A stretch of DNA of 64,000 bases from a virus (Duplodnaviria; Heunggongvirae; Uroviricota; Caudoviricetes): IMG/VR virus record IMGVR_UViG_3300046507_000526, positions 70,193 to 134,192 of that record; one strand, written 5' to 3'. The position numbers and the translations under genes are program-made. Below are positions 5,473 through 61,141 of the stretch, piece by piece. The notes beneath the pieces are model-generated. The model was not told the DNA's origin and did no database searches. It was given only the letters and a program-made list of their open reading frames with translations. Each line of letters opens with the position of its first letter. Position 1 is the first letter of the stretch.

Positions 5473-5484
5473 TTGGTAAATGAA

Positions 5485-6327
5485 ATGGACGACAACGTAC
5501 AATCTATTGAACAAATCCGTCACCTTGACTTTAACGCTCTCGGTGACCAGATGAAGATGTATGAGAAGAAGTACAACAGCGAATACCTGATGCCCGGTTT
5601 GCCGATTGTGATCAGATTCGATGGCAACGCTTTTCATACCTTTACGAAGCACATGCAAAAGCCTTACGACAAAGATCTTGCTCAGACTTTCCAGTGCACG
5701 GTCGATGATCTTATCAGGGAGTTGAATCCTGATCTTGCGTATCATCAAAGTGATGAGATCAGTCTGTTCTGGTTTAACCATGACACTACCAAGCAGTTGG
5801 CATTTGATGGCAAAGTACAGAAATGGCTCAGCGTATACGCAGCCAAATGTACAGCTATCTTTAATAGCTTCCTGCAAGGGTTCATGCCTGAAAGCTATTT
5901 GATGAGACCTGTGTTTGATGCCCGAGTTTTCCAGTTCCCACGCTGGGACTTTGCATACGACTATTTCGTGTGGCGTCAATGGGATGCTAGAAAGAATAGC
6001 GTAAGCATGGCTGCACATCACTACTTTACCAACTCAGAGCTTCACGGCGTGAATACTGCCGAGAAAATTGAGATGTTGCATAAGGTAGGCGTTAATTTTG
6101 CAGAGTATCCGGAATCTTTTAGACAAGGCACGTTCACCCGTAAGGTAAAACGTCTGATGCCTATTGATGACGAAACCTGGGCTCGTATCCCCGATAAGAA
6201 CAAACCTGAAAACAGATTTGTAGAACGTAGTTTCATCGGAGTAGTTAAAGGTGTACCTAAGCTTACTTCCCTGACAGTAAGCAACGGTAGTTTTCAAATC
6301 TTTCATTCTGACTATAGCGTTGCCTAA
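5485..6327 (+). CDS. Thg1-like protein (tRNA-His guanylyltransferase family 3'-5' nucleotidyltransferase)
   Basis: IVIRFDGNAFHTFTK and AYHQSDEISLFWF match Thg1 motifs vRiDGr.FhkF and gqSDEySFvf; FVWRQWDARKNS matches WRQ.D..NN; ORF track start 5473 is TTG, first ATG 5485. Confidence 0.8.
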   Translation: MDDNVQSIEQIRHLDFNALGDQMKMYEKKYNSEYLMPGLPIVIRFDGNAFHTFTKHMQKPYDKDLAQTFQCTVDDLIRELNPDLAYHQSDEISLFWFNHDTTKQLAFDGKVQKWLSVYAAKCTAIFNSFLQGFMPESYLMRPVFDARVFQFPRWDFAYDYFVWRQWDARKNSVSMAAHHYFTNSELHGVNTAEKIEMLHKVGVNFAEYPESFRQGTFTRKVKRLMPIDDETWARIPDKNKPENRFVERSFIGVVKGVPKLTSLTVSNGSFQIFHSDYSVA

Positions 6328-6353: not shown

Positions 6354-6424
6354 CGTACTACCAGGAAGATAGCCTGGTGGTACAATGTATTTTTAAGAGA
6401 GGTAACACAGTGGTAAAACTCGCC

Positions 6425-7666
6425 GACATGGCGCTAAACGACTTGTATGCAAAACCAAAGATTACAAGTACAGTAGAGGCGGTTATTCATGTTAAAGAAG
6501 ATTTCAGCAAAATCAGCCCGACGTATTGTGAACGGGTCTGTAAGCTGAAGTGCAAGAATTATGAATCTGTTTCTTTAGCCAAGAAAGAACTGGATATTCT
6601 GATTATTCAGGATCACGCTGCACCAGATGGTAAGTGGGATAAATACTCCGGTCAACAAGAGCAGCAAATGCAGGACATTATCTTCCATCTCTGTAAAGCA
6701 GCAGGGTTCGGAGATCTGAAGTATAAGCTGGTAGATTTATTGAAGTGCCCGCCAACGGAAGAGGACTTTCCTAAGGGTAAAGCGCCGACGGCAACGACGT
6801 TGATGAAATGTCGACCGTACTTGTGGCAGGAAATTGAATCGTGTAAACCTAAGATTATTATCAGCTTGGCCACTGCAGTGACTAAAGCGTTGGGTTACAA
6901 GAAACATAGTAATTCTGGGAACCGTGGTGAGTACGTGGATAATGTCGTAATCACGATCCATCCTAGGGCGTTGACAATGATTCGTCAGAACGCCTCAGGA
7001 GCATTTTGGGGTCAAGAGTTGTATGGGGTTATCCTTCGGGACTTCAAGAAGGCAGCAGCGATGGCCAGGGGTGAGTTGAATCCTCCGAAGCTGGAAGATG
7101 CGATCAAGTTTTACAAAGAGAATCGTATTCGAGTAGCAGAGTCGATTGAAGACGTAAAAGAGTACATGGGTATTCTTAATTCGTTACCAATATCTGCGAT
7201 TATTAGCGTAGATACTGAAACCGTAGGATTCGATGGGCTAGCCCCAGATGCAAAGCTATTGTGTATTCAATTTGGATATAGAGATCCGGTTGATAAAGTA
7301 GTTAAAGCATTGGTCGTTCCGTTGTGGCATAGAGAGAACACGTTCTATAGCGGTGATGAAGCTTGGACGTTGGTGAAACCGTTCTTAGAAGGTGAACAGC
7401 CGAAAGTTTTGCATAATGGCAAGTTCGATATACTGTATATATGGTTTACTACGAAGGTTAGAGTTAGAAATGTAGCGTTTGATACTCTTCTTCTTTTACA
7501 TAGTTTGGATTCAGGCGCACAAGGTACGTATTCGCTTAAAACTGCAGTTTGGGACATTGTTCCCTGGTCTGGGCTCGGAGGCTATGAAGATCTACTTCCC
7601 AAATTGACCAAAGCAAAAGATCTTGAAGAAGAAACAGAAGAAGAAGGTGAAGTAGATGGCGATTAA
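6425..7666 (+). CDS. DNA polymerase I-like, N-terminal polypeptide: UDG-like domain plus 3'-5' exonuclease Exo I and Exo II motifs
   Basis: IISVDTETVGFDG (Exo I) and KVLHNGKFDILYI (Exo II); N-terminal region with degenerate family-4 UDG-like layout (ITIHPRAL); ORF track begins at GTG 6377, first ATG 6425; acidic tail EEETEEEGEVDGD. Confidence 0.7.
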   Translation, partial: DMALNDLYAKPKITSTVEAVIHVKEDFSKISPTYCERVCKLKCKNYESVSLAKKELDILIIQDHAAPDGKWDKYSGQQEQQMQDIIFHLCKAAGFGDLKYKLVDLLKCPPTEEDFPKGKAPTATTLMKCRPYLWQEIESCKPKIIISLATAVTKALGYKKHSNSGNRGEYVDNVVITIHPRALTMIRQNASGAFWGQELYGVILRDFKKAAAMARGELNPPKLEDAIKFYKENRIRVAESIEDVKEYMGILNSLPISAIISVDTETVGFDGLAPDAKLLCIQFGYRDPVDKVVKALVVPLWHRENTFYSGDEAWTLVKPFLEGEQPKVLHNGKFDILYIWFTTKVRVRNVAFDTLLLLHSLDSGAQGTYSLKTAVWDIVPWSGLGGYEDLLPKLTKAKDLEEETEEEGEVDGD

Positions 7667-9362
7667 GCGTATAGCACCCAAGGCTAAGAAGCCAATTGCA
7701 GAAATGCTGGAAGAGAAGATTGTCGAAAAAGCAGTAGAAGCACCTGCAGAAAAGAAAGCGCGGAAGAAGAAAGAGCCAACCGTAGTTGAAGTGCCTGAAG
7801 AAAAGAAGATCTATCGTACATACGAAGATTATCCGTATGCTGACCTGATGACTTATGCTGGTATCGATAATATCGTAACGTCGGAAGTTCTAACAGCACT
7901 GTGGCCCGACTTGGTAAAGCCGCAAGAACTGTTGATGCCACAGAAGAACGGCCAGCCCAAGAAGATCAAGGCTCCTGGAATTATCAAGTCCGTTGTCGAG
8001 ACTGAAATGCTCTGTCATGAGTTCATTATCAATCTCGAAATTAACGGAATGCTTTATGACATAGCACGTAACCGTGCAATTTCGAAGCAGATGGTTGAGG
8101 AAGTAGCAGAGTTCGAAGAGAAGATCTTCAGCGCTATTGGGAAACGAATCAATCTTGATTCCGGTACAGAAGTAGGCAAGTACCTGTATGAAGAACTAGG
8201 GCTTGAGGCTCCATTCAAGACAAAGTCTGGTGACGATGCAACTGACGGTGCGGCACTTTTGACGCTGGCGGGTTTGAATCCGTTGGCTAACCAGTACACA
8301 GCTCCGGATCCAGCCAAGCAGTTTTTGGCGGATATGGCTAAGAGAAAGGATATTAATAGTGTCCATAACACCTTCATTAAAACGTATGTTGAAGACTTTG
8401 TTCGCTCGGATGGTCGCATTCATCCTAGCTACAACATGTTTGGTACTAGCAGCTTTCGGATCACTGGGGATAGCCCAAATCTTACACAGCTACCTAGGCC
8501 TAAGCACGGGTACAACGTACGTGAATGTTATACTGTGGCTGACGGGAATGTATTTATTGCATTTGACTTTAGCTCAGCGGAAGTAAAAATCCTCGGTGCA
8601 ATCTGCCGAGATAAGAACATGCTGAAGGCGATTTCTGAAGGTCTTGATTTTCACTCGTTCTCGGCAAGTGCAATGATGGGTGTGCCCTATGAAGAGTACA
8701 TTCATATTCTTGAAGACGATTCACATCCGCTGAAGAAAGAGTACAAGCGTATGCGACAAGTTGCAAAAGTTCTGACGTTCTCAATCCTTTATGGTTCGTC
8801 AGTAAACGGTATTGCAATGCAGTTGCAGTTAGAGAAGAGCGAAGCGGAACGTCTGGTTAATATGTACTTCAATGCGTATCCTGGTGTTAAGGACTATATT
8901 GATGAGTCGCATCAGATGGCACTGTTGAACCAGAAAGTATGGACACCTTTTGGTCAGTACAAGCACGAGTATGTTGCTCAGCCTGCGTTCAAGCGTACCG
9001 CAGCATATAACGCATCACTGCGCAATGCACAGAACGTTCGTATTCAAAGTGCAACGTCTACGCTGGGTCTGGTAACGTTTGCACATCTGGATCAGGCAAT
9101 TCAGAAGATTGACCCACGCTGCAAGAGTATCTGTACCGTGTATGACTCGGTGGAGTTCGAAGTGCCGCAGGAACGTGCAGCAGAAGTGATTGAAACAGCG
9201 TTCTATTACATGAACGAATGGCCTGTCCAACATTTCGATTGGCTTGATCTCCCGATTGGTGTTGAAGGTGAAATTGGATTTAACTGGGGTCAGGTGAAAG
9301 AAGTTAAGCCTGGCATTACGCAAGAAGCGGTAAATGAGATGTTAATGAAGATGAGAGCGTAA
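7656..9362 (+). CDS. DNA polymerase I-like, C-terminal polypeptide: Exo III motif plus family A polymerase domain
   Basis: YAGIDNIVT (Exo III, Y-x3-D); motif A FDFSSAEVKILG, motif B RMRQVAKVLTFSILYG, motif C TVYDSVEFEV; ATG overlaps upstream stop by 11 nt. Confidence 0.85.
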   Translation: MAIKRIAPKAKKPIAEMLEEKIVEKAVEAPAEKKARKKKEPTVVEVPEEKKIYRTYEDYPYADLMTYAGIDNIVTSEVLTALWPDLVKPQELLMPQKNGQPKKIKAPGIIKSVVETEMLCHEFIINLEINGMLYDIARNRAISKQMVEEVAEFEEKIFSAIGKRINLDSGTEVGKYLYEELGLEAPFKTKSGDDATDGAALLTLAGLNPLANQYTAPDPAKQFLADMAKRKDINSVHNTFIKTYVEDFVRSDGRIHPSYNMFGTSSFRITGDSPNLTQLPRPKHGYNVRECYTVADGNVFIAFDFSSAEVKILGAICRDKNMLKAISEGLDFHSFSASAMMGVPYEEYIHILEDDSHPLKKEYKRMRQVAKVLTFSILYGSSVNGIAMQLQLEKSEAERLVNMYFNAYPGVKDYIDESHQMALLNQKVWTPFGQYKHEYVAQPAFKRTAAYNASLRNAQNVRIQSATSTLGLVTFAHLDQAIQKIDPRCKSICTVYDSVEFEVPQERAAEVIETAFYYMNEWPVQHFDWLDLPIGVEGEIGFNWGQVKEVKPGITQEAVNEMLMKMRA

Positions 9363-10786: not shown

Positions 10787-11791
10787 ATGGGCGGTAACGC
10801 ACTTAAACTTGAAACGGTTCGGCTTGAGAAGAAGTATTACGACCACGTAGCTGCTGGAACCGCCGAAGTACTTCAAACTGCATTTCCCAAAGCTAAAGTC
10901 GCAGTCATTCCGTCGTACGGAGAAAAGGAAAGTTTTGGAGATCTAGACGTTTTGATCTCTGGAATTTCTATGGATAAACTTCGGGAGTTCGTAACTCAGA
11001 AACTGAACTCTCCTGAATACTTCCAGAATGGCAATGTCCTTTCGTTTGGTTTAGAGATTACTGCCTTGCTTATGAAGAAGGCAATTTTCCAGATTGATTT
11101 CATTACGATACCAGAGGAAGACTTCGACTTTGCCTTGAACTACTTTGCCTATAACGATCTCGGAAACCTTATCGGTCAAACAGCTCATGGCATTGGATTG
11201 AAATTTGGGCATGATGGGCTCTGGTATAAATACATTATCGAAACACAGTTGGTTAAAGAAATCTGTATCACGAAAGACTTCGATACAGCTCTTCGTATTC
11301 TCGGATATAGTGTCTCCGATTACAAACGTGGTTTTCAAACTCTTGATGATATCTTTACATACGCTGTAAGTAGTGAGAATTTCAGCACATGGAATTATCA
11401 ACTTGAAAATCGGAATCACGTAGGTCGTATTCGAGATAAGAAACGAAAGACCTATATGGCATTTCTGGAGTGGATGGAGGACAAGGGCCTCCCTGGTGAA
11501 AGACAGGATAGAGATCTCGGTCTTGTATTGGCTGACTACAATGTCCCAGCAGTATCTTTCGAATTCATGATTACAACGCTGAATCACTTCAAAGTTGAAC
11601 GTGTCAAGAAGAAGTTTAGCGGAGAGAAAGTATCAGAGTGGACTGGACTTACCGGAAAAGAACTCGGTCAATTCATGAATGAATATCGAGGTCTTGATAG
11701 AGAACTGTTTATAAATCAAATGGATTTAACACCTACTGATAAAGTAGAAAAAGAAGTTAAAGAATTCTTTGAAAAATGGAGTAAGAAATGA
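10787..11791 (+). CDS. putative nucleotidyltransferase (Pol-beta superfamily-like G-x8-DLD motif)
   Basis: PSYGEKESFGDLDVLI fits hG[GS]...DhDh signature of Pol-beta NTases; no closer family assignable by eye. Confidence 0.4.
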   Translation: MGGNALKLETVRLEKKYYDHVAAGTAEVLQTAFPKAKVAVIPSYGEKESFGDLDVLISGISMDKLREFVTQKLNSPEYFQNGNVLSFGLEITALLMKKAIFQIDFITIPEEDFDFALNYFAYNDLGNLIGQTAHGIGLKFGHDGLWYKYIIETQLVKEICITKDFDTALRILGYSVSDYKRGFQTLDDIFTYAVSSENFSTWNYQLENRNHVGRIRDKKRKTYMAFLEWMEDKGLPGERQDRDLGLVLADYNVPAVSFEFMITTLNHFKVERVKKKFSGEKVSEWTGLTGKELGQFMNEYRGLDRELFINQMDLTPTDKVEKEVKEFFEKWSKK

Positions 11792-11979
11792 CGCTCACTG
11801 TTCACTTACAATGGTGGATGATCCCCGCTCTCATCACCATTCTTAGTTATTGCTGGGCTTTCTTTTGGCCTTTCAAAGACAACACTGGATTTATGGCTGG
11901 GCTTGTAAACCTGTTTGCACTTATTCCAGCTTCAGGGGTTTCTCTTATTGCATGGATTATTGCGGGATTTATGAAATGA
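11788..11979 (+). CDS. small membrane protein
   Basis: 63 aa, hydrophobic, start overlaps upstream stop. Confidence 0.4.
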   Translation: MTLTVHLQWWMIPALITILSYCWAFFWPFKDNTGFMAGLVNLFALIPASGVSLIAWIIAGFMK

Positions 11980-12209
11980 CTTGCGATCATATAATTCAAC
12001 TACCCGATAAATATGTTACCTGGACAGACGATTGGACCGGCGAAGAAATGAGCGAATGGGAATACAATCGTACAGAGAGTGCATTAACCGATATTGATAC
12101 TCATCGAATGAAGTGCTCTAAATGTGGCAAGATTGAATACTACTCTGGAGCAGCTCGTGCTTATTATACTGAAGGTAAACGTTCACCTGGAATTAGGGGA
12201 TTAGAATGA
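11976..12209 (+). CDS. small Cys-containing protein (possible zinc ribbon)
   Basis: internal ATG of ORF 11850; CDH...CSKCGK. Confidence 0.35.
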   Translation: MTCDHIIQLPDKYVTWTDDWTGEEMSEWEYNRTESALTDIDTHRMKCSKCGKIEYYSGAARAYYTEGKRSPGIRGLE

Positions 12210-12399: not shown

Positions 12400-12471
12400 A
12401 AAAGCATTAGGGGCAAGATACGTCTTGTCATTATATTGTTACTTTTAGCTCACTAACCACAAGGTGGAATA

Positions 12472-13773
12472 ATGGCCGTACTTACGATAGGTTCTTCGAA
12501 CCCTAAATTTTCCTGGATCATTTCCAAAAACCCTGCAACTATCCGGGAGAAAGGTGAGCCGTACAAAAAAGAGATCCGTCAAGGCAATGCATATGGCTGG
12601 TTTCTCACCAATGACCAGTCTTTTCGTCTCTGGTTTCGGGATAATCCTTTGACGTGTTCGTTTGCAGAAGGAATCAATGCGGAATTCGAGTATCTTGACC
12701 GCACTCGTTACGCTTCTCCTTACTTGCCGATTTCGTTGATCACGAACTGTCTGGCAACTGCATTCAAACAATCCCAAGAGGAAGATGAAGAAAAACCGTG
12801 GTCTGCATTTCTCACGACGACGGTAGAAATTCGAAGTGCTAGCATGCTTCGTCATCTCACAGAACACTTTAACGGGGCATTTGGATTTGACAAAGGGTAT
12901 AGCTTCACTGCTCAGAAATTAGCGGGCAACGCCTACGACGTCCATATTCAAGGCCCGAGCGTTCACAAGATGCTCAACGCTGCAATGGTTATTTTCCTGA
13001 TGTTCTGTGTTTCGACAAAAGGCATCTACATCAACCTCAAGGGGGATATCGTTGAGAAATACATTGCTGCAATTAACCGCATCAATGCTCCTTATTTTAT
13101 CCGGTATCTCTTTAAACGGAACGTGTTCTCAAATCGTGACACATTTCTTAAGAACAAATCGCTGCTTGATACGAACGAGATTTCGCTCTGGCACGGTGAC
13201 ACCCTTGCTCAGCGTAAAGAAGCTATCTTCCCCCACCTGGAAGGCGGAGCAATGCTTGTTGACATTGGGTGCGGTGAACTCAATTACACGCTCCCGCTCA
13301 GTTCGAAATATGAACAGGTCCTTGCGTTTGAAGCGGATGACGAACTCCGTGAAAACATGCTCGGAAAACTCAAAGGCCGAGAAGTCGAAAACGTTGTTCT
13401 CCGAGATGCTGCAACTCCCGAATCGATTGATGAGTGTTCCTCGCTCCTTAGCGGAGCAGACGTGCTCATCACAGAAGTTCTGGAGCACATTCCTCTTAAA
13501 GATGCAAGAGAGCTTGTTAATTCCGTTCTGAAAACTGAATTTAACAAGTTGGTTATCACGGTTCCGAACAAGGCTTTCAACGTGAACTATCTGATGGGAG
13601 AAGATGAGTTCCGTCACGATGATCACAAGTGGGAAATGACTCACGACGAATTTGAAGATTGGATTCTTCGTTCGAAATTCCCTGAATGGACTGAAGTTGA
13701 AATTAGAGGTATTGGCGATTCTGTCAACGGCACATTCACTTCCACGATGGTTGTTTTCTCCAAGAACAAATAA
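12472..13773 (+). CDS. hen1: Hen1-like RNA 3'-terminal 2'-O-methyltransferase (bacterial Hen1 architecture)
   Basis: C-terminal class I SAM MTase motifs MLVDIGCGELNY, VLAFEADDEL, DVLITEVLEHIP; about 430 aa with N-terminal non-MTase domain as in bacterial Hen1; directly upstream of pnkp. Confidence 0.7.
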   Translation: MAVLTIGSSNPKFSWIISKNPATIREKGEPYKKEIRQGNAYGWFLTNDQSFRLWFRDNPLTCSFAEGINAEFEYLDRTRYASPYLPISLITNCLATAFKQSQEEDEEKPWSAFLTTTVEIRSASMLRHLTEHFNGAFGFDKGYSFTAQKLAGNAYDVHIQGPSVHKMLNAAMVIFLMFCVSTKGIYINLKGDIVEKYIAAINRINAPYFIRYLFKRNVFSNRDTFLKNKSLLDTNEISLWHGDTLAQRKEAIFPHLEGGAMLVDIGCGELNYTLPLSSKYEQVLAFEADDELRENMLGKLKGREVENVVLRDAATPESIDECSSLLSGADVLITEVLEHIPLKDARELVNSVLKTEFNKLVITVPNKAFNVNYLMGEDEFRHDDHKWEMTHDEFEDWILRSKFPEWTEVEIRGIGDSVNGTFTSTMVVFSKNK

Positions 13774-13782
13774 GGACTTACC

Positions 13783-16203
13783 ATGAAAATTCAAACCAAG
13801 CTTCACACCGTGTTTATCCTGGTTGGCCCTTCTATGTGCGGCAAGTCGACGTTTTCCCTTGAGTTGCAGCACGCTCTAGGAGAACAGATGCGTAAAGCTG
13901 GACTGGGCGGTTCGTGTTCGATTCCCGTCATCAGTTCCGATGCGGAGCGAGAAAGTCTTTACGGCTACAAGAATCTCCATCGTTACGCACCTTTGATGAT
14001 GGAAGCCTCAGCTTCGGCCTTCGAAGTCCTTATGGCCAGGTACAAGGCAGCGATCTCGTTCCCGATCAATAGCGAATTCGTGATCATCGACACGACTGGC
14101 ATGAACGATACGTTCCGCAAGCAAATTCGTGAACTGGCCGAGGAAAAGGAATATCGTACTGAGTTGGTTACTTTCGAGTACTCCAACTATCAGTATTGGT
14201 CGGAATCCAATGCAGAAGAAAAGGTCATCGTCGAGTCGAGTGCCAAGCGATTCAAGCAGAGCGTCCTCCCGAATCTGGGGCGTAAAGATCACGACGGCTG
14301 TATCCGTGTGCGTGAACGTGACAAGAATTTCTGGCGTGACCTCGAAGTTGAGATTGAAGATCTGCAAAAGTACGCAGCTACTCAGTTGTATCTCAATAAG
14401 GACATGCAGATCAATATCATCGGAGATGTGCACGAACATGTCGAAGCGCTGGAAGAACTTCTTGTCAAACTCCCTGCTGGGAGCATCAACGTTATGGTGG
14501 GAGATTACATTGATAAGGGCAATGACACAGCAAATGCCATTGCTGCAGCTCGTAGGTTCCACGCTTCTGGTGGTATTATTGTTCACGGCAATCACGAGTC
14601 GTATGCTGTGAAACGTATCAAGGGAGAAATTAAGAACCCTGATCTGGAAATGGAAGCAAAGTACATGACTTCACTCAATGTACTGCTGAAAGATCCTGCG
14701 CTTGCAGCTGAGCTTGTAGATCTCTTCGACCTTTGTTCTGTACCTTTCCTCAAAATTCACGGTCATAACGTTCGTACCCTTTACGTTACCCATGCTCCTT
14801 GCGAGCAGAAATATCTGGGTAAGATGAGCCCTGCAGCACTTAAGGCTCAACGTAACCTGTACGGGGATCGTAAAGAAGACTACCGGAAGGCATATGACTT
14901 TATCTTTAAAGAAGCAGTTGGCAATTTCCCTTTGCATGTGTTTGGTCATGTTGCCCATAATGCTTCAAAGCTCGAATATCGGAACAAGATTTTTATCGAT
15001 ACCGGTGCTGTGTATGGCAATGCTCTTTCTGCTTTGTGCTATAAGGGAAACCGCTATTGGATCGAGTCTGTTAAGGCGACTGAAAAAGTAACGGTACATA
15101 AGGAACTTCAAAACTTCCTTACGCAACCTATTGCAGCTCCGGAAAAGCCCTTCAGCATCTACGACTATAAGTTGTCGCCTGATGATATGAAGTTCTTGAA
15201 GCGTACAATCGCAAACCGCGTTCAGTACATTTCCGGAACTATGGCACCAGCTCCGTCGACCAGCACTGAGATTGAAAGTCTGAAGGCTGGACTGGACTAT
15301 TTCCGTAACAAAGGCACGACGAAGGTAATTCTGGAACCGAAGTACATGGGTTCACGTTGCCAGATGTATCTGTTCCGTGGCCAACGCGAGAAATGCTTCC
15401 TGGTTTCCCGCAATGGTTTCAAGATTCGAATGAATGAAAAGCTTGACGCAATGCTTGACGCCGAGCTTGCGAAGTATGAAGCTTTGAGTCTTGATTTCTG
15501 GAATGAGTCAATGATTCTAGACGGCGAGCTTCTTCCTTGGACTACTCTCGGCGCTTCCTTGGTCGAAGAGCAATTCAAGGCGTATGAAGAGCTTGTACGT
15601 TACGAACTGGAAACTCTTGCAGGGGATGCGGAATTTGTGAAGCTTAACTTCAAGCAAAAGCCTGATTTATTAGCACGTCTGGCCGATCTGGCAACGTTCA
15701 AGAAAACCCTTGCAATCTACGGAGCAGAAGCCGATCCTTTCTATAAACCTTTTGCAATTCTGAAAATTGATAGCGAGGCCATGGGGAATAAATTTGAGGT
15801 TGCAGATTCGTTCGATACTCTCAACGAAGACGAATGTCGTGTCCTGCGTTTGGATAACGAATTCACTGACCAAACAGCGCAAGAATTCTTCGAAGCGTTG
15901 ACCGTAGATCGTAAAATGGAAGGCGTCGTCATTAAGCCTCTCGATGGTCCGGAAGATGTAGCACCGTACATGAAGGTTCGGAATGAGAATTATCTGACAC
16001 TTGTGTATGGCTACGACTATAAGAACCGTTACGAAGCTCTTTGCCGCCAGAAGAAGGTTGGTGGTAAACTACGTGTCTCCATTAAGGAGCATGATCTCGC
16101 AATGGCAATGCTTAATGTAGACAACGGCCCTGCCATGACTGAATTGATTGTGAAAATGATCTCACAACTCAATGAAGAAAAGGCTTTGGATCCTCGTCTG
16201 TAA
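13783..16203 (+). CDS. pnkp: bacterial-type polynucleotide kinase-phosphatase with C-terminal ligase-like adenylyltransferase domain (Pnkp)
   Basis: P-loop kinase VGPSMCGKST; calcineurin-like phosphoesterase GDVHEH...GDYIDKG...GNHES; C-terminal nucleotidyltransferase motif EPKYMGSRCQ; three-domain order matches bacterial Pnkp. Confidence 0.85.
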   Translation: MKIQTKLHTVFILVGPSMCGKSTFSLELQHALGEQMRKAGLGGSCSIPVISSDAERESLYGYKNLHRYAPLMMEASASAFEVLMARYKAAISFPINSEFVIIDTTGMNDTFRKQIRELAEEKEYRTELVTFEYSNYQYWSESNAEEKVIVESSAKRFKQSVLPNLGRKDHDGCIRVRERDKNFWRDLEVEIEDLQKYAATQLYLNKDMQINIIGDVHEHVEALEELLVKLPAGSINVMVGDYIDKGNDTANAIAAARRFHASGGIIVHGNHESYAVKRIKGEIKNPDLEMEAKYMTSLNVLLKDPALAAELVDLFDLCSVPFLKIHGHNVRTLYVTHAPCEQKYLGKMSPAALKAQRNLYGDRKEDYRKAYDFIFKEAVGNFPLHVFGHVAHNASKLEYRNKIFIDTGAVYGNALSALCYKGNRYWIESVKATEKVTVHKELQNFLTQPIAAPEKPFSIYDYKLSPDDMKFLKRTIANRVQYISGTMAPAPSTSTEIESLKAGLDYFRNKGTTKVILEPKYMGSRCQMYLFRGQREKCFLVSRNGFKIRMNEKLDAMLDAELAKYEALSLDFWNESMILDGELLPWTTLGASLVEEQFKAYEELVRYELETLAGDAEFVKLNFKQKPDLLARLADLATFKKTLAIYGAEADPFYKPFAILKIDSEAMGNKFEVADSFDTLNEDECRVLRLDNEFTDQTAQEFFEALTVDRKMEGVVIKPLDGPEDVAPYMKVRNENYLTLVYGYDYKNRYEALCRQKKVGGKLRVSIKEHDLAMAMLNVDNGPAMTELIVKMISQLNEEKALDPRL

Positions 16204-16223
16204 TTAAACAAATCTGTATTTCG

Positions 16224-16232
16224 TGGTATAAG
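16224..16232 (+). promoter_or_regulatory. TGGTATAAG promoter motif
   Basis: conserved box at start of structured 16.2-16.57 kb leader. Confidence 0.4.
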
Positions 16233-16570
16233 TAAGTTGGAATAACGTATGCATCACTTGCATTTTTTGTTAGTGTAAGGGGGGAGTAACTCTCTCCGTA
16301 TACGCTCTGGCTCCGATCTGTGAAAACAGATCTACGCCAGGGAAACGGGCTCCGCCCACGAGGTTATTCCAGTAACCAAATCGCCTGAAATCTAGGCGAG
16401 CTTCGCAAGTATCTATTCGCTTTAGCTTTACAAAGCCGAAGGCCAGCGAGTTACTTTCTGGTGATAAACTTCGGGATCACAATAGTACGGCTGCGCCGTC
16501 CTCGACCCGAGATACCCTGACGGGTGCGTGTTGCGAAGCACTTAACGTAACAACAAGGAGAAATAGGTTT

Positions 16571-25257: not shown

Positions 25258-25633
25258 GATAGCAGTATTGTTCTCTAATGAGCACTACGACAGATACGAC
25301 AATTATCGTGAAATTATAGAAGCAATAACGGAGTGGACAGTTGTTTCTGAAGAAGAGTTTAAACTGTTAACCCAGTACAGTTACGAAAAAGGATTTCATA
25401 TACTTGAAGTTCCTTTGAATCAAACTGAGTTCATTCGAAATACAGTGACGACTCTTCTTGAAGAAGCCAAGGCTAAAAAAGAAGCGGAAGAAAAACGTAA
25501 GGCTAAACAAAAGGCCGAACGAGAAGCTAACCGCGCCAAACAAGCCGAGAGAGATCGTGCTAATAAGCTTAAGCAACTTGAGAAGTTACAGAAGGAACTA
25601 GGCTTAGCCCCGGAGAGCGACAATGTCACATAA
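25244..25633 (+). CDS. hypothetical protein with Lys/Glu-rich coiled-coil tail
   Basis: 129 aa ORF. Confidence 0.45.
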   Translation: MTDRKIAVLFSNEHYDRYDNYREIIEAITEWTVVSEEEFKLLTQYSYEKGFHILEVPLNQTEFIRNTVTTLLEEAKAKKEAEEKRKAKQKAEREANRAKQAERDRANKLKQLEKLQKELGLAPESDNVT

Positions 25634-26054
25634 ACAAGTAATCGTAATGCGCAAAGATCTCGGAATGCGCAAAGGGAAAATGATTGCTCAAGGTGCGCAT
25701 GCAAGTCTTGCGGCGATTTTGAATGCCTTTTCTGAAGAAGTGAGTACGTACCCGGAAGGGTATTTCCAAAATACGGGACCTTTTCAAAGAATAGAATACA
25801 CATTTACGGATCTTAAAGGTGGCGTTATTCCCTGGCTCACAGGCAACTTCAAAAAAGTGTGTGTATATGTAAATTCGGAAGAAGAACTGCTCGCACTCTA
25901 TGAAAAAGCAAAAGCTTCTGGTATCATTACTTCATTGATTACCGATTCAGGATTGACCGAGTTTAACGGAGTTCCGACCAATACCTGCATCGCGGTTGGT
26001 CCGGATTTTGAAGATAAGATAAATGAAGTGACCGGTGGGTTGCCACTTCTATAG
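25623..26054 (+). CDS. pth2: peptidyl-tRNA hydrolase, Pth2 family
   Basis: VIVMRKDLGMRKGKMIAQGAHAS and ITDSGLTEFNGVPTNTCIAVGPD closely follow Pth2 (PTRH2) motifs. Confidence 0.85.
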   Translation: MSHKQVIVMRKDLGMRKGKMIAQGAHASLAAILNAFSEEVSTYPEGYFQNTGPFQRIEYTFTDLKGGVIPWLTGNFKKVCVYVNSEEELLALYEKAKASGIITSLITDSGLTEFNGVPTNTCIAVGPDFEDKINEVTGGLPLL

Positions 26055-30840: not shown

Positions 30841-30916
30841 GGGAACATAGCTCAATTGGCAGAGTAGCGGTCTTCAAAACCGTTGGTTTCGGGTTCGAGT
30901 CCCGATGTTCTCACCA
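30841..30916 (+). tRNA. tRNA with anticodon UCA (UGA reader; opal-suppressor / tRNA-Trp-like), CCA encoded
   Basis: canonical 76-nt cloverleaf: acceptor GGGAACA/TGTTCTC, D-arm GCTCAATTGGCAGAGT, anticodon stem GCGGT/ACCGT, loop CTTCAAA, T-arm TCGGGTTCGAGTCCCGA; resembles tRNA-Trp with C34 to U. Confidence 0.75.
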
Positions 30917-31620: not shown

Positions 31621-31688
31621 TAAACAATAGCTCAATCGGTAGAGCACACATCCATGTGAAGCTGGGGGTTCGAGTCCCCCTTGTTTTA
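31621..31688 (+). ncRNA. short tRNA-like gene (68 nt) with truncated anticodon arm; possible tRNA pseudogene or minimal tRNA
   Basis: acceptor TAAACAA/TTGTTTT (U1-U72 mismatch), D-arm GCTCAATCGGTAGAGC, T-arm GGGGGTTCGAGTCCCCC, but only 12 nt (CACATCCATGTG) where the 17-nt anticodon arm should be. Confidence 0.35.
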
Positions 31689-42840: not shown

Positions 42841-43015
42841 GCAACAAAACGACTGGGCTCACGAGGCCTAGTCTGTTTTGGAAAGGTCTTGAAGGCCTTT
42901 TCAAAGCAGTGTATAATTGCTTCTCTTTGGGGTTAAAGCTTTAAGGTGAAGCAACGGACTTTTAATCCGTAGAATAGGGGTCAGTACCCTGTAGCCCTAC
43001 CAATAATTTCTAATA

Positions 43016-46390: not shown

Positions 46391-46873
46391 ATGCAAGAAC
46401 TTGAAAACGGCCGCTTTACCATTATCCCTATCGAACTTCTCAGCCTTATTGTTGAAAAGACAGAAAATGGTTTGAAGCACATCGGAGCACCTGAAGATAT
46501 CTCGGTAGAAGATACGCTGAACGAAGTCCGGATTGCCATTAATTTTCAGATTCAGGATCAACGATCCAAAAGTGAAACTGTGAATCGCCTCTGGAAACGC
46601 TTTCAGGCTACGAAAGAATTCATGGATCCTCGTGAACTTCAGATGAATGAAGCTATGTGGGCTGGTTTCGACCATAAGAAGTACGAAGGCGATAAGACCA
46701 GAATTATTTCCGGACTTGAGAAGAGCATGTTCGAACTTACTGAAGTAATGCTGGATAACAATGTTCCTATCCATGCGCTTGATAGTATTGACGGCGAAGA
46801 CCCCGTAGAGATTCGTACGACTAGTCTTGAGGAAATCAAGAATATGTTTGACGGATTTGGCAAGAAAGAGTAA
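46391..46873 (+). CDS. hypothetical protein
   Basis: 160 aa with CAGGAG RBS. Confidence 0.5.
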   Translation: MQELENGRFTIIPIELLSLIVEKTENGLKHIGAPEDISVEDTLNEVRIAINFQIQDQRSKSETVNRLWKRFQATKEFMDPRELQMNEAMWAGFDHKKYEGDKTRIISGLEKSMFELTEVMLDNNVPIHALDSIDGEDPVEIRTTSLEEIKNMFDGFGKKE

Positions 46874-46884
46874 TATAGGTTTGT

Positions 46885-46915
46885 GCGGTAACAAAGAGTT
46901 GCCGCTTTCTTTTAC
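46885..46915 (+). terminator. rho-independent terminator
   Basis: GCGGTAACAAAGAGTTGCCGC plus T-run. Confidence 0.55.
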
Positions 46916-46931
46916 ATTCGAGAGGCTCGAA

Positions 46932-48014
46932 ATGTCACTAAAAACTGAAATATCCAAGTTGTACAAAGACGTTCCGTCGGAACGCGCAGAACCAGAATAT
47001 GAACTCGCAGTCGTGATTGGTAGATTTGAACCTCCGCACGTAGGCCATGGCATTCTTTTCAACAAAGCGTCCATGGTAGCAAAGAAGGTTCTTATCCTGA
47101 TCGGATCTTCCTATTCTCCACGTACGATAAAGAATCCATTTACGTTTGAAGAACGGGCTCAGATGATTTCTGAATCTCTACCTTCGGAGAACATCATTTG
47201 TATGCCTTTGGTGGATAACCTTTATTCGGATGACGATTGGGTTAACTCCGTCCAACGTAGCATTGCAGAATGTGTTCCTGCAGGTTCGAAGGTAGCCATC
47301 GTTGGCAACAAGAAAGACGAAAGTTCTTACTATCTCGATCTCTTTCCGCAATACAACTACGTAGCAGTGGATGAAGTGAAGCTCGGTTTCGATGCTACGA
47401 CTGTTCGTGAAGTTCTTTTTGAAAAGCCTGGTCTTGTAGATCTGCTTAAGAGCGTAGTGCCTGCTAATGTATTCGAATTCTTCAAAGAGTTCATGAAGAC
47501 GAGTGAGTATGTACGACTTCAGAAAGAGTGCTTCATGATCCGGAAATACAAAGAGGCGTGGTCAGTAGCTCCGTATGCACCTACGTTCGTAACAGTAGAT
47601 GCTGTTGTAAAGAAATCCGGACACATCTACCTAGTCAAACGTAAACATGCTCCGGGTCAAGGGCTTTGGGCACTCCCAGGGGGATTCGTAGAACCAAATG
47701 AAAGACTTAAAACTGCAGCGTTTCGTGAACTCATGGAAGAGACCAACATTGACCTTCCTCCTGGTCTGTTGCTTGGTTCTATGGGCGAAGGCGTTGTGTT
47801 TGATCATCCTGGGCGTAGCCTTCGTGGGCGCACTTTTTCGCATGCTTTCCTTTTTGACCTCGATAAGGCAGACAAGAAACCAGGCTTGCCGAAAGTGAAG
47901 GCAGCAGATGATGCATCGGACTGCAAGCCTTTCACGTATGATGAAATTCTGAGCATGCCCGAGCAGATTTTCGAAGATCACTTGTCCATCATCCGTAAGC
48001 TGGTGGGTATTTAA
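46932..48014 (+). CDS. natV: bifunctional NMN adenylyltransferase / Nudix hydrolase (NadM-Nudix, NatV-like)
   Basis: VIGRFEPPHVGH nucleotidyltransferase (H/T)xGH motif; C-terminal Nudix box LPGGFVEPNERLKTAAFRELMEETNI. Confidence 0.8.
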   Translation: MSLKTEISKLYKDVPSERAEPEYELAVVIGRFEPPHVGHGILFNKASMVAKKVLILIGSSYSPRTIKNPFTFEERAQMISESLPSENIICMPLVDNLYSDDDWVNSVQRSIAECVPAGSKVAIVGNKKDESSYYLDLFPQYNYVAVDEVKLGFDATTVREVLFEKPGLVDLLKSVVPANVFEFFKEFMKTSEYVRLQKECFMIRKYKEAWSVAPYAPTFVTVDAVVKKSGHIYLVKRKHAPGQGLWALPGGFVEPNERLKTAAFRELMEETNIDLPPGLLLGSMGEGVVFDHPGRSLRGRTFSHAFLFDLDKADKKPGLPKVKAADDASDCKPFTYDEILSMPEQIFEDHLSIIRKLVGI

Positions 48015-48609: not shown

Positions 48610-50001
48610 ATGAAAGCAAATAAAATCCTTATCGGGGATAGTTACAAATATTCTCATGCCCCTCAGTACCCCCTAGGTACAGTAGGCATGCAGTCGTACG
48701 TAGAAGCTCGGAAAAACAACAGTGGATTCCCGATTGATAAAGTTTCATTTTTCGGACTGCAGGCTTTTATTAAAGAATATTTGCTAGACCCAATCACTCG
48801 GGATGACCTCAAAGAAGCGGAAGAAGTAACAAGGGCACAGGGAATTCCTTTTAATAAACAGGGATTTCAAGATATCATCGAAAAACATGATGGATATTAC
48901 CCTGCCGTTATCAGTGCGGTACCTGAAGGTAGTCAAGTAGAAATCGGGAACGTGCTGCTCACTGCGGAGTCTACTGATAGCTTGCTTCCTTGGGTAGAAA
49001 GCTTTCTAGAAACCCCTTTGCTTCAAGCAGCTTGGTATGGAACTACCGTTGCTACGATTTCACGTCATTGTAAAGAAGTGATTTTTGAGTTTCTAAAAGA
49101 AACCAGTGATGTGCCTATCAACGAGATTCCCTGGAAATTAGCCGATTTTGGATACCGTGGAAATAGTTCTCAAGAAAGTGCGGCTATTGCAGGGGCGGCG
49201 CATTTGACTAACTTTCTCGGGACCGACACTATCAATGCAATGCTGTTTGCTCGCAGGTACTACGGCGCTTCGCTTGAGCATTTAGGGTATAGCGTCCCTG
49301 CCAGCGAACACTCCACTACTACTAGTTGGGGCAAAGATGGGGAACGTGATTTTTACAGTCACGCCATTAAAACTTATGCAGGGAAATACCCGATTGTCAG
49401 TCTAGTAGCGGACTCATATGATATCGATAACTCTATTCAGAATATTTTTGGTAAAGACCTGAAAGAACAGATCGTAAACTGCGGATCTACCGTAGTTATT
49501 CGATTGGACAGCGGAGAACCTGTGGAAGGAGTTACCAAGGCACTTGGATATCTTGACGCAGCATTCGGATCAGTTCCAAATAGTAGGGGGTTTAAAGTCC
49601 TCAAAAACGTACGTGTACTTCAAGGAGACGGCGTAAATCCTACCTCTATTAAGAGAATTCTTACGGCTATGAAGTTGCAAGGCTTTAGCGCGGAAAATAT
49701 CGTGTTCGGTATGGGGGGTGGGTTACATTCCGCGTGGGATAGAGACACTTTTAGTTTTGCAATGAAGTGTTCCGCTATCAACGTAGAGGGTCAGTGGAGA
49801 GATGTGTATAAAGACCCTAAAGCTGGCGGTAAGACAAGTAAGCGGGGCAGACTTGCGCTTATTGAAGACGATGGTAAACTGGTGACCATCCGAGAAGATG
49901 CTTTGATGGGTCGAACTAGTCTTCTGGAACCTGTGTACGCCAATGGCGTTCTTATCCGTGACCAGTCGTTTAACGATGTTCGCAGGCTGGCTGCTATCTA
50001 A
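48610..50001 (+). CDS. nadV: nicotinamide phosphoribosyltransferase (Nampt/NadV)
   Basis: LIGDSYKYSH and ADFGYRGNSSQESAAIAGAAH match Nampt motifs. Confidence 0.85.
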   Translation: MKANKILIGDSYKYSHAPQYPLGTVGMQSYVEARKNNSGFPIDKVSFFGLQAFIKEYLLDPITRDDLKEAEEVTRAQGIPFNKQGFQDIIEKHDGYYPAVISAVPEGSQVEIGNVLLTAESTDSLLPWVESFLETPLLQAAWYGTTVATISRHCKEVIFEFLKETSDVPINEIPWKLADFGYRGNSSQESAAIAGAAHLTNFLGTDTINAMLFARRYYGASLEHLGYSVPASEHSTTTSWGKDGERDFYSHAIKTYAGKYPIVSLVADSYDIDNSIQNIFGKDLKEQIVNCGSTVVIRLDSGEPVEGVTKALGYLDAAFGSVPNSRGFKVLKNVRVLQGDGVNPTSIKRILTAMKLQGFSAENIVFGMGGGLHSAWDRDTFSFAMKCSAINVEGQWRDVYKDPKAGGKTSKRGRLALIEDDGKLVTIREDALMGRTSLLEPVYANGVLIRDQSFNDVRRLAAI

Positions 50002-58031: not shown

Positions 58032-58763
58032 TTGACGAACGAGATTTCTACGAAGACTCTCAGGAAAGAAGCACCGGAGCTTGATACAGAGAAAGTGCGT
58101 TTGATTTTCCTGGATATCGATGGAGTCGTAATCTCTGCTAAGACCGCGCTTCTTGCAGGTGGATGGGGTAGACTTTTTGTAGACTATTCCATGTACGACG
58201 GAGGATGGTTCAATTCTTCCGAGAAGAAAGTGCTCTGCCCGCCGTATGTGCGCAACCTGGAGTCGGTTGATAAGCATGCAGTTGGGCTTATCAATCAACT
58301 TTGTAAGGTGACAAATGCACACATTGTTCTTTCATCAACGTGGAGGCTTGGAATAGATGTCTACCAGATTCGGCAAGTTCTCGAAGCGATGGGAATCGAC
58401 CCATACCGTGTCATTGGTAAAACGCACAGCGGTGGATCTAATCGCGGGGAGGAGATATTCCATTTCTTACAGGGAATTGGCGAGAAGCGGTCGCATCAGG
58501 ATCCAGACTTTTTTGTATCTCAAGGGCGTCTCCTCGAATCACTTAGCAAAGTTGTGCTCGAAGTCGAAAGTTATACCATTATCGACGATGTGCAAGCGTT
58601 CTTACCAGATCAACAGGCGCATTTTGTACAGACAGATGAAACCGAAGGATTTGGCCTTACAGATTGTCTACTAGCAGGGTATATTCTTACGGGCAAGGAC
58701 TTCGGTATCCCTCAGCTTCAGAGCGGAGAGGACTATGAGGGCAAACTGATTCTATCGACATGA
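58032..58763 (+). CDS. HAD-like phosphatase (DxDGV)
   Basis: LIFLDIDGVVISAKT motif. Confidence 0.5.
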   Translation: MTNEISTKTLRKEAPELDTEKVRLIFLDIDGVVISAKTALLAGGWGRLFVDYSMYDGGWFNSSEKKVLCPPYVRNLESVDKHAVGLINQLCKVTNAHIVLSSTWRLGIDVYQIRQVLEAMGIDPYRVIGKTHSGGSNRGEEIFHFLQGIGEKRSHQDPDFFVSQGRLLESLSKVVLEVESYTIIDDVQAFLPDQQAHFVQTDETEGFGLTDCLLAGYILTGKDFGIPQLQSGEDYEGKLILST

Positions 58764-60911: not shown

Positions 60912-61141
60912 TTACGGACCGTTAGTATTAGGTTATCTACTTATGGGAAGTCGGGGTCGGGGGTTCGAATCCCTCCAGTGGCAATGCTACTGTAGCTCAG
61001 TGGTAGAGCACGAAAAATCTCCTAGTACGCCTTTTGTCCGTTTCAATTTTTTCACCTAGACGGTCATCTTGGAAAATGGGTCGCAACCTAATCTGAGAGA
61101 TTCGAGACAAACCCTATAGAAGGGCGGTGAAAGTTCAAAAT
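60912..61141 (+). ncRNA. Y-RNA-like repeat unit 7 with tRNA-like module
   Basis: GGACCG 60916, GGTTATCT 60931; T-arm GGGGGTTCGAATCCCTC (60959-60975), CAGTGGC (60976-60982) pairs 7/7 with GCTACTG (60986-60992) across AAT loop, then TA and D-arm GCTCAGTGGTAGAGC (60995-61009). Confidence 0.5.

Follow-up and report, generated by a model that had tools for sequence, protein, structure and literature searches.

A predicted Hen1-Pnkp RNA repair cassette of a large uncultured phage, placed by sequence in a sister clade of the classical bacterial pairs

The hen1-pnkp locus

We analyzed a 64,000-nt stretch of a tailed phage genome (Caudoviricetes; IMG/VR record IMGVR_UViG_3300046507_000526, positions 70,193 to 134,192), hereafter the window, with a focus on two adjacent genes predicted to encode the RNA 2'-O-methyltransferase Hen1 and the RNA end-healing and sealing protein Pnkp. 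Calling of open reading frames (ORFs) yielded a 433-aa ORF (hen1) at 12472-13773 (+) and an 806-aa ORF (pnkp) at 13783-16203 (+), exactly where a first-pass annotation made from the sequence alone had placed them. The motifs quoted in that annotation were all recovered, namely GPSMCGKST (aa 15), GDVHEH (aa 214), GDYIDKG (aa 240), GNHES (aa 269) and KYMGSR (aa 520) in the 806-aa protein, and VDIGCGE (aa 263) and TEVLEHIP (aa 334) in the 433-aa protein. A 134-kb metagenomic contig encodes proteins identical to both.

The hen1 stop and the pnkp start are just 9 nt apart, and each gene has its own Shine-Dalgarno sequence (AAGGTGGA 5' of the hen1 ATG and TAAGGA 5' of the pnkp ATG), an arrangement consistent with a single operon. 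A scan for sigma-70 promoters and terminators around the cassette returned no more sites than were found in shuffled sequences. The window contains 22 tRNA genes, 20 found by ARAGORN and two more by Rfam (31621-31688 and 42929-42999), in keeping with the count of about 22 given by the first-pass annotation. They do not surround the cassette as had been described: all 22 lie downstream, between 22379 and 43812, the closest starting 6.2 kb beyond the pnkp stop. The cassette adjoins the tRNA region and is not enclosed by it.

Domain composition and active sites

The 433-aa protein has the two-domain layout of classical Hen1, with an N-terminal domain of the ligase-activating type and a C-terminal domain predicted to be a 2'-O-methyltransferase of the metal-dependent type; Pfam Hen1_N, TIGR04074 and PDB matches agree with the first-pass reading of this gene as a Hen1 with an N-terminal extension. 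In characterized systems, the N domain binds and activates the ligase (PMC4411300). Among PDB sequences, the window Hen1 matched over its full length the Hen1 of the Capnocytophaga gingivalis (Cgi) Pnkp1-Rnl-Hen1 complex (4xrp_C, E=6.6e-28, 101 bits), with the N domain aligning from CgiHen1 residue 2 onward. Its methyltransferase domain also matched those of Clostridium thermocellum (Cth) Hen1 (3jwi/3jwg) and 3jwh/3jwj, the Cth and Ava Hen1 methyltransferase domains being weaker matches than CgiHen1. Conservation was assessed in alignments of 118 Pnkp-like and 119 Hen1-like homologues at 30-100% identity, in which the Hen1 signatures D264-x-G-x-G, E335-x-x-E338-H339 and R381-H-x-D-H385 were invariant or nearly so. 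E335, E338, H339 and H385 are presumably the metal ligands, as in known Hen1 structures.

Three Pfam domains were found in the 806-aa protein, AAA_33 (aa 10-139, 1.5e-7), Metallophos (aa 208-328, 4e-9) and PNKP_ligase (aa 479-777, 7.7e-24), and an AlphaFold2 model built from the 118 homologues had a mean predicted local distance difference test score (pLDDT) of 95.3. By Pfam, the model and Foldseek, the domains follow the kinase-metallophosphoesterase-ligase order of classical Pnkp.

The kinase domain, searched alone with phmmer against the PDB, returned only noise, and its class was therefore settled by the structure model, which Foldseek matched to the Cth kinase domain CthPnk (4gp7/4gp6/4mde) with a target template modeling (TM) score of 0.79. 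K21, D53 and R56 were present in 118/118 homologues, as was Ser or Thr at position 22; the window residues K21, S22, D53 and R56 correspond to Cth K21, S22, D38 and R41 (residue list in PMC3902929).

The phosphatase domain could be aligned by sequence with that of CthPnkp (4j6o; Foldseek target TM 0.71). D215, H217, D241, N270, H271, H337, H389 and D406 were invariant or present in 117/118 homologues and correspond to the essential metal- and phosphate-binding set of CthPnkp, D187, H189, D233, N263, H264, H323, H376 and D392 (PMC3675462), the assignment of H337, H389 and D406 being based on the alignment together with their invariance.

The ligase domain had its best PDB match in the Capnocytophaga ligase Rnl (4xru_B, E=4.7e-38, 134 bits), ahead of the CthPnkp ligase (3ty9, E=7.6e-12, 47 bits). 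Foldseek likewise ranked Rnl first (4xru, target TM 0.76, versus 0.68 for the CthPnkp C-terminal domain bound to Hen1-N, 4e6n). The motifs K520-x-x-G523, E713-G714-x3-K718 and K731-x-R733 were invariant in 118/118 homologues, and K520 aligned with the KYMGS motif of Rnl. From motif homology and what is generally known of covalent nucleotidyltransferases, we take K520 to be the motif I lysine that is adenylylated.

The second gene is, as first annotated, a fusion of kinase, calcineurin-type phosphoesterase and ligase domains in this order, on the evidence of Pfam, PDB matches, the AlphaFold2 model and residue conservation. Profile searches assigned the C terminus of the 806-aa protein to PNKP_ligase and the N terminus of the 433-aa protein to Hen1_N, not to unrelated families, and comparison with the C. 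thermocellum proteins matched the catalytic residues save for Lys245 in place of Arg237. Sequence profiles, matches to solved structures, the high-confidence model of Pnkp and the conserved catalytic residues together fully support the prediction that the pair consists of Hen1 and a trifunctional Pnkp with a complete domain set for healing, methylation and sealing.

A lysine in place of the motif II arginine

Motif II of the phosphatase reads GDYIDKG in the window protein, which has Lys245 where CthPnkp has the phosphate-binding Arg237 of the classical GDxxDRG motif; the alignment is unambiguous here. Lysine occupies this position in 117/118 homologues and in 80/80 bacterial loci of the clade described below, versus arginine in 3/3 classical proteins. 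Because the lysine is clade-wide, Lys245 is not a lesion of the window sequence. In CthPnkp, Arg237 is essential for the phosphomonoesterase step, and its replacement by lysine raised Km, raised the cyclic phosphodiesterase's kcat and abolished the Mn-dependent phosphomonoesterase (PMC3675462). We think it more likely that the change is compensated for than that healing is cut short, because every member of the clade keeps an intact Hen1 active site and Hen1 needs a free 2'-OH.

Placement relative to classical Pnkp-Hen1

The first-pass annotation had assigned the pair to the C. thermocellum-type family, a placement that the equivalog models did not support. The window Pnkp scored 126.9 bits against TIGR04075 (cut-off 750) and the window Hen1 59.3 bits against TIGR04074 (cut-off 340). 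Another 14 proteins of the same clade, bacterial ones included, scored 135-212 bits on TIGR04075, and clade members were collinear with this model from position 3 to position 851 of 851. Among the roughly 270 recovered homologues there was no classical Pnkp, and none reached the cut-off.

Names given by the Prokaryotic Genome Annotation Pipeline (PGAP) divided along the same line. Clade members (Paenibacillus, Enterococcus; 33% identity to the window Pnkp over the full length) are called 'AAA family ATPase' or 'metallophosphoesterase' and stand beside a 'class I SAM-dependent methyltransferase', whereas classical members (Nostoc, Rhodococcus, Deinococcus and others; 23-25% identity with partial coverage) are called 'polynucleotide kinase-phosphatase'. 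The classical loci compared here (Nostoc, Deinococcus, Rhodococcus) were taken from PGAP-annotated plasmids.

Domain-wise BLAST gave 101-222 bits between the window and a Paenibacillus pair. Against the classical proteins the kinase scored no more than 26 bits, the phosphatase 49-58, the ligase 57-77 and the methyltransferase 42-54, and Hen1-N gave nothing (E>3), whereas the window Hen1-N matched the corresponding domains of Paenibacillus and of the cultured phages RYC and XacN1 at 88-132 bits. The window phosphatase was 25-29% identical to CthPnkp-type domains. A chimeric origin, with a classical kinase-phosphatase joined to an Rnl-type ligase, was considered and rejected, as the distance to the classical proteins is about the same for all five domains.

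In a rough neighbor-joining tree of ligase domains, the classical proteins (motif I EKHMGS) stood apart from a PKYMGS lineage composed of CgiRnl, standalone phage ligases, Bacillales fusion proteins and the window protein. The standalone ligases nested beside the subclade of the window protein, which indicates that fusion or fission occurred more than once. On these sequence comparisons, the two-gene cassette is placed in a deep, unnamed sister clade of classical Pnkp-Hen1.

Gene order and distribution

A gene order of hen1 then pnkp had been described as reversed in the first-pass annotation, and it proved to be the standard one. It was found in 3/3 classical loci from three phyla (Nostoc, Deinococcus and Rhodococcus; L156, L157 and L158), and in 80/80 bacterial clade loci hen1 was the co-oriented gene immediately 5' of pnkp; in every locus except one, 6-23 nt separated the two.

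Cellular relatives turned up in 236 species, a lower bound, in a pattern-based scan that took one genome for each GTDB species. The best 80 of these 236 were nearly all from Paenibacillus, Brevibacillus, Cohnella, Bacillus and Enterococcus, at 33-37% identity. The absence of any cellular homologue closer than about 37% indicates that the phage gene is no recent capture from any sequenced cell. For the ligase domain, 333 relatives were found at E<=1e-30 among 1.84 billion cluster representatives, mostly fusions of 780-900 aa, with a minority of standalone ligases of 360-415 aa. In one metagenomic protein (P0321, 1229 aa), an RtcB-related region of the intein-containing type is joined to a C-terminal PNKP-type ligase domain, so that a single polypeptide unites two distinct RNA ligase chemistries.

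In IMG/VR, a Pnkp relative was found on at least 33 contigs, 27-530 kb in length, and a Hen1 relative on 28. The two genes are no more than 10 kb apart in 30/33 viral loci, mostly with hen1 directly upstream; exceptions were three loci with the opposite order, one divergent pair, three standalone ligases and one split-off kinase. Five cultured phages in GenBank (XacN1, RAS14, CM1, RYC and vB_VpaM_sm033) have rearranged versions. Members of the clade are common in uncultured phages and, among bacteria, in Paenibacillaceae and Bacillaceae.

The XacN1 pair was linked to tRNA repair in print in 2018, and a putative Pnkp1-Rnl-Hen1 set has been reported for Borgs; a large survey of RNA repair in jumbo phages never mentions Hen1. 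The earlier remark that the pair is not a standard phage module holds in that it is rare in phages, but precedents exist in XacN1, the other GenBank phages and the IMG/VR contigs.

Comparison with known repair systems

The cassette shares with classical bacterial Pnkp-Hen1 the adjacent, co-oriented hen1 and pnkp genes, the domain layout of both proteins, the catalytic residues of kinase, ligase and methyltransferase, and the metal ligands of the phosphatase. It differs in motif I of the ligase (PKYMGS versus EKHMGS), in motif II of the phosphatase (GDxxDKG versus GDxxDRG), in being very distant in sequence and below the equivalog cut-offs, and in being carried by a phage.

The Pnkp1-Rnl-Hen1 heterohexamer of C. 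gingivalis (4XRP/4XRU; Wang et al. 2015) supplies the best solved-structure matches for both the window ligase and the window Hen1, and its ligase belongs to the same motif I family (PKYMGS). In that system, however, the ligase is a separate protein, healing is carried out by a T4-like Pnkp1 with a HAD phosphatase, and hen1 is unlinked from the pnkp1-rnl operon (PMC4411300). In the window, by contrast, one protein joins the ligase to a CthPnk-like kinase and a calcineurin-type phosphatase, and hen1 lies right next to pnkp. The Pnkp1 chain of the Capnocytophaga complex gave no match to the window Pnkp in the PDB sequence search.

The uncharacterized pairs of Paenibacillus, Brevibacillus, Cohnella, Bacillus and Enterococcus belong to the same clade as the window pair and are collinear with it over the full length at 33-37% identity. 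They share its gene order with tiny gaps, the GDxxDKG motif and a ligase that matches Rnl better than the Cth ligase. They differ in being cellular, apparently on chromosomes or megaplasmids, and in having about 55 additional residues, contributed mainly by ligase-domain insertions.

Among the cultured phages (Xanthomonas phage XacN1 ORF197-199, Stenotrophomonas phages RAS14 and CM1, Vibrio phage RYC and vB_VpaM_sm033), Hen1 was 28-31% identical to the window protein over the full length, and the Rnl-type ligases were also 28-31% identical. In XacN1 the kinase and the ligase are standalone proteins whose genes flank that of Hen1 (in the order kinase, Hen1, ligase), and no adjoining phosphatase was recognized. 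RAS14 resembles XacN1 as judged by gene layout, and CM1 has matches at equivalent positions. RYC encodes a standalone ligase followed by one protein comprising Hen1_N, methyltransferase, kinase and a HAD-type PNKP phosphatase, which is the Capnocytophaga composition in fused form; sm033 has a RYC-like layout as judged by ORF size and annotation only. None of these phages has a fused kinase-calcineurin phosphatase-ligase protein, and the search with the window Pnkp matched them over aa 461-806 only. Pfam found no HAD_PNKP domain in the window Hen1 or Pnkp, unlike in the RYC fusion protein.

T4 Pnkp and Rnl1, which act against PrrC, are likewise a phage-encoded heal-and-seal system for breaks whose ends bear a 2',3'-cyclic phosphate and a 5'-OH. 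T4 lacks the methylation step and hence immunity to re-cleavage, and its HAD-type phosphatase and Rnl1-type ligase reside in separate proteins, whereas the window ligase is of the PNKP_ligase/Rnl type and is accompanied by Hen1.

Phage lineage and synteny

PHROG matches identified a primase, PolA, RNase H and NrdA among the replication genes of the window, which encodes NrdAB; no virion genes were identified within the 64 kb. These phage-type replication genes, together with close relatives on viral contigs, establish the viral origin of the sequence. Megablast of the cassette against 50,697 phage records gave no match, indicating that the lineage is uncultured. Syntenic relatives at 64-75% identity were found on IMG/VR contigs of 88-181 kb; the closest relative is 78% identical in protein. 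The nearest cultured relative by PolA is Salmonella phage Arash (48%), followed by Vibrio phages of about 187 kb (D69, D148 and D181).

The cassette is present in each of the six close PolA relatives found in IMG/VR (L148-L153). PolA, RNase H, a TIM-barrel ORF, a nucleotidyltransferase resembling family-X polymerases (PolX-like), a Zn-ribbon ORF, Hen1, Pnkp, orf117 and NrdAB are syntenic in eleven related contigs, and a core of PolA, Zn-ribbon ORF, Hen1, Pnkp, orf117 and NrdAB persists down to 48% identity. Identity to the related contig L007 was 81% for Hen1 and 75% for Pnkp, compared with 88% for the flanking PolA and 81% for NrdA. The carriage by relatives, the synteny and a conservation like that of PolA and NrdA indicate that the cassette is a fixed, selected part of the lineage.

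PolA itself is split in the window into two overlapping ORFs (+), an exonuclease part at 6377-7666 (429 aa) and a polymerase part at 7656-9362 (568 aa); the two parts are about 660 nt apart in L007 and L008.

Neighboring genes and RNAs

The features of the window are compiled in Table 1.

Table 1 Features of the cassette and of its surroundings in the 64,000-nt window.
Feature	Position	Strand	Basis
hen1	12472..13773	+	Pfam Hen1_N E=4.8e-50; full-length match to 4xrp_C; Shine-Dalgarno AAGGTGGA 5' of ATG
Hen1 N-terminal domain, aa 4-234	12481..13173	+	Pfam PF22032 (Hen1_N), E=4.8e-50
Hen1 methyltransferase domain, aa 246-429	13207..13758	+	TIGR04074 match; S-adenosylmethionine (SAM) motif D264-x-G266-x-G268
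pnkp	13783..16203	+	three Pfam domains in order; AlphaFold2 mean pLDDT 95.3; Shine-Dalgarno TAAGGA 5' of ATG
Putative 5'-OH polynucleotide kinase domain, about aa 1-190	13783..14352	+	P-loop G15-x4-G20-K21-S22-T23, general base D53, R56
Calcineurin-type binuclear metallophosphoesterase (putative 2',3'-phosphatase) domain, about aa 208-430	14404..15072	+	Pfam Metallophos; alignment to 4j6o
Putative ATP-dependent RNA ligase (adenylyltransferase) domain, aa 477-806	15211..16203	+	motif I K520-Y-M-G523, motif IV E713-G-V-V-I-K718, motif V K731-V-R733
Zn-ribbon ORF, 59 aa	12206..12385	+	directly 5' of hen1; weak Pfam matches to Lar_restr_allev and a Zn-ribbon family
Pol-beta-like nucleotidyltransferase, 334 aa	10787-11791	+	GDLD motif; large family (1,413 matches) without Pfam model
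Thg1-like enzyme	5473-6327	+	Pfam Thg1 E=1.3e-27, weak Thg1C match; between primase and PolA
Pth2 peptidyl-tRNA hydrolase	25623-26054	+	E=1.4e-30; inside tRNA array
RF-1/GGQ-domain-only protein, 225 aa	37662-38339	+	weak similarity to prfA, prfB, prfH
NAD salvage: CTP_transf_like (cytidylyltransferase-like) and Nudix fusion, read as NMNAT-like	46827-48014	+	
NAD salvage: NAMPT/NAPRTase	48610-50001	+	
HAD_SAK_2 protein ('HAD domain in Swiss Army Knife RNA repair proteins'; SAK-HAD)	58032-58763	+	E=3.1e-18
YrlA-like Y RNA, full-length match	60930-61043	+	44.9 bits, E=5.8e-8, under Rfam gathering score 69
Rsr/Ro60 (TROVE and vWA_Ro60)	61700-63322	+	NCBIfam Rsr E=3e-138

The Zn-ribbon ORF holds the same position in L007-L012 (38-85% identity) and in L161-L166, and tblastn searches of three more distant viral loci (L013, L016 and L024) did not recover it. 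It is conserved with the cassette within the phage lineage and is a candidate associate. Just 5' of the Zn-ribbon ORF, three relatives have an ORF of about 50 aa (L161 780-947, L162 786-941, L163 792-941) with a precomputed Pfam match to Phage_T7_Gp5_9; the T7 protein Gp5.9 is an inhibitor of RecBCD. The matching window ORF (inside 11850-12209) had no Pfam match at E<=0.01.

Several neighbors point to RNA and translation. The Thg1-like protein may act in 3'-5' repair of tRNA 5' ends or as a tRNA-His guanylyltransferase, and the RF-1-domain protein may be a ribosome-rescue factor. The YrlA-like match has a tRNA-like T/D-arm module and lies about 650 nt 5' of Rsr/Ro60, with which it would form a phage-borne Ro60-Y RNA module. 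The SAK-HAD protein could be a second RNA 3'-end phosphatase, which would be relevant if the Lys-type Pnkp phosphatase is without monoesterase activity.

Within the tRNA array, ARAGORN called one gene (30841-30916, +) as tRNA 'SeC' with anticodon UCA; in Rfam it scores as an ordinary tRNA (68 bits) and may be a UGA-reading suppressor. The tRNA-like gene found by Rfam only at 31621-31688 (+) has an aberrant anticodon loop, and the other gene added by Rfam, a tRNA-Lys(UUU) at 42929-43002 (+), was missed by ARAGORN at default settings. In XacN1 and RAS14, a nicotinate/nicotinamide phosphoribosyltransferase gene lies a few kb from the Hen1 and ligase genes.

The Pol-beta-like ORF at 10787-11791 had no Pfam or PDB sequence match. 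Its AlphaFold2 model (pLDDT 95.4) matched DNA polymerases lambda and beta, of family X, in their palm region (TM about 0.42, E about 2e-7). A role as an RlaP- or CCA-type RNA-end repair enzyme of the cassette was rejected on account of this polymerase-X-like model and the absence of the ORF from the 48% relative.

The 367-nt gap that follows pnkp (16204-16570) contains no ORF, and its DNA sequence is conserved across ten distinct relatives. An invariant TGGTATAAGT (extended -10-like) stands near the start of the gap and a conserved Shine-Dalgarno sequence at its end; a CUCUC is predicted to pair with the Shine-Dalgarno sequence of orf117. A core of about 145 nt (16396-16540, +) folds in prediction into a multi-stem junction with 94% of cells paired, compared with 34-50% in slid-register controls, and with 8 double-changed pairs, a number that 0/500 shuffles reach. 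The core had no Rfam match. The RNA element was rejected as a general partner of the cassette, as its covariance model finds only the window copy among 39 sources. The element probably serves as a leader of orf117-nrdAB specific to this lineage and is, on the basis of only 10 related sequences, a candidate for a new cis-regulatory leader or noncoding RNA. In L012, a 168-kb relative at 48% identity, the position of this leader directly after the pnkp stop is taken by a tRNA-Leu(UAA) gene (12440-12540).

Discussion

In outline, the enzymology of the cassette is very probably that of the reconstituted bacterial systems, from which the following scheme is taken (PMC4411300, PMC3675462). A metal-independent ribonuclease would cut an RNA, typically in a tRNA anticodon loop, and leave ends that carry a 2',3'-cyclic phosphate and a 5'-OH. 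The Pnkp phosphatase domain would open and then remove the cyclic phosphate, the kinase domain would phosphorylate the 5'-OH, and the Hen1 methyltransferase would methylate the 2'-OH of the 3'-terminal nucleotide. The ligase domain, active only with the Hen1 N domain bound, would then seal the nick, and transesterifying nucleases could not re-cut a junction that carries the 2'-O-methyl group. Homology likewise suggests, for the phage proteins, the stoichiometry of the complex, the order of the reactions, an RNA (tRNA) substrate and the biological role.

The best explanation, to which we assign a probability of roughly 0.72, is that the cassette is a Hen1-Pnkp-type RNA repair machine of a large uncultured phage that protects the translation apparatus against ribotoxins. 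It would shield this apparatus during infection from host or competitor anticodon nucleases and other ribotoxins, and it would act alongside the 22 tRNAs, the Thg1-like enzyme, Pth2, the RF-1-domain protein, SAK-HAD and the Ro60/Y-RNA module. The counter-defense role as such, already suggested by the first-pass annotation, is plausible and seems to us somewhat probable. Phage RNA repair and phage tRNAs directed against tRNA-cleaving defenses are an established concept (PMC7824862), and T4 Pnkp/Rnl1 against PrrC is the counter-defense paradigm (PMC4411300). The RNA-repair and translation-rescue genes of the window fit the reviewed picture in which large phages meet attacks on the translation apparatus with tRNAs and RNA repair, and they make us more confident that RNA is what the cassette acts on there.

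Several points weigh against this explanation. According to the authors of the Cgi structure, the in vivo substrates of bacterial Hen1-Pnkp are unknown (PMC4411300), and we found no biochemical or genetic work on any phage Hen1 or Pnkp in the literature. The nearest cultured PolA relatives (Arash, D69, D148 and D181) have no Hen1 or Pnkp match, so related phages can do without the cassette. Only in this lineage does the cassette come with dense tRNA arrays (L007-L011 have 8-10 tRNAs within 10 kb, most other viral loci 0-3). Finally, Lys245 could mean a different end-healing chemistry, since the monoesterase step is needed for a 2'-OH,3'-OH end.

The same biochemistry might serve general RNA maintenance instead of counter-defense, as part of an RNA quality-control set with Ro60 and Y RNA, an alternative we regard as rather unlikely. 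It would then mend or stabilize RNAs of both phage and host that suffer damage in infection. The damage could come from nucleases of the phage itself, from stress toxins of the VapC type or from the processing of phage tRNA transcripts. Rsr/Ro60 with its YrlA-like RNA, the Thg1-like enzyme, Pth2 and the RF-1-domain protein do look like RNA and translation upkeep, the Anabaena hen1-pnkP operon is induced late in translational stress (PMC8421152), and the authors of the Cgi system suggest generic repair with a broad substrate range (PMC4411300). However, 2'-O-methylation of the junction pays only against recurrent cleavage at a specific site, as by dedicated ribotoxins, and the phage precedent, T4 Pnkp/Rnl1, is one of counter-defense. 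A role in healing and sealing DNA ends during phage replication or repair is highly improbable. The cassette does sit in a block of replication and nucleotide genes (primase, split PolA, RNase H, PolX-like nucleotidyltransferase, NrdAB), and CthPnk has been crystallized with DNA oligonucleotide phosphoacceptors (PMC3902929); yet the pairing with Hen1, whose chemistry needs a ribose 2'-OH, is strict, the closest characterized relatives of the ligase are Hen1-dependent RNA ligases, and the same hen1-pnkp pair occurs in bacterial chromosomes without a replication context.

It is also conceivable, and compatible with a translation-protecting repair machine, that the Lys-type phosphatase is only a cyclic phosphodiesterase and leaves a 2'- or 3'-phosphomonoester; SAK-HAD (58032-58763) might then finish healing, or sealing might occur without methylation. 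We consider this distinctly unlikely. The clade-wide Lys at the Arg237 position, the behavior of CthPnkp R237K, which keeps or speeds the cyclic phosphodiesterase and loses the Mn-dependent monoesterase (PMC3675462), and a separate RNA-repair-type HAD phosphatase in the window speak for it. Against it stand the Hen1 site kept intact throughout the clade, the bacterial loci L003 and L004, which have no conserved extra phosphatase beside the pair save for an unrelated HAD protein, and the fact that the effect of one residue may not transfer to a protein as distant in its phosphatase domain as this one.

A bolder idea, which we advance as doubtful, is that the Lys-type clade represents a third kind of Hen1-linked RNA repair with a mechanism of its own, for which large phages would be the main carriers and the main site of remodeling. 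The invariant Arg-to-Lys change may reflect another end-healing outcome or division of labor than in CthPnkp, and fusion and fission in phages (a fused Pnkp; Rnl with a Hen1-Pnkp1 fusion; a separate kinase, Hen1 and Rnl) may have made the parts of the Capnocytophaga complex.

The system type and a phage-borne example were already known. What is new is the proposed sister clade, overlooked by annotation pipelines, which links classical Pnkp-Hen1 with the Rnl and Hen1 of Capnocytophaga; the Lys signature of the clade phosphatase; its recurrence in uncultured phages in shuffled architectures; and, in this phage, the embedding of the cassette in an unusually complete RNA-repair repertoire. Members that the pipelines miss occur in 236 or more bacterial species, on 33 or more viral contigs (some from phages of more than 300 kb) and in five cultured phages. 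The cassette is no surprise in kind, but it is a good lead on the long-open in vivo role of Hen1-Pnkp. If it makes tRNAs permanently resistant to a host anticodon nuclease, this would be the first in vivo role for any Hen1-Pnkp system, and repair with 2'-O-methylation would surpass T4 Pnkp/Rnl1 as a counter-defense because the mended RNA would not be re-cut at the same site. That a phage lineage has fixed a version of the system suggests a concrete setting for such a role, the infection of hosts with tRNA- or rRNA-cleaving defenses.

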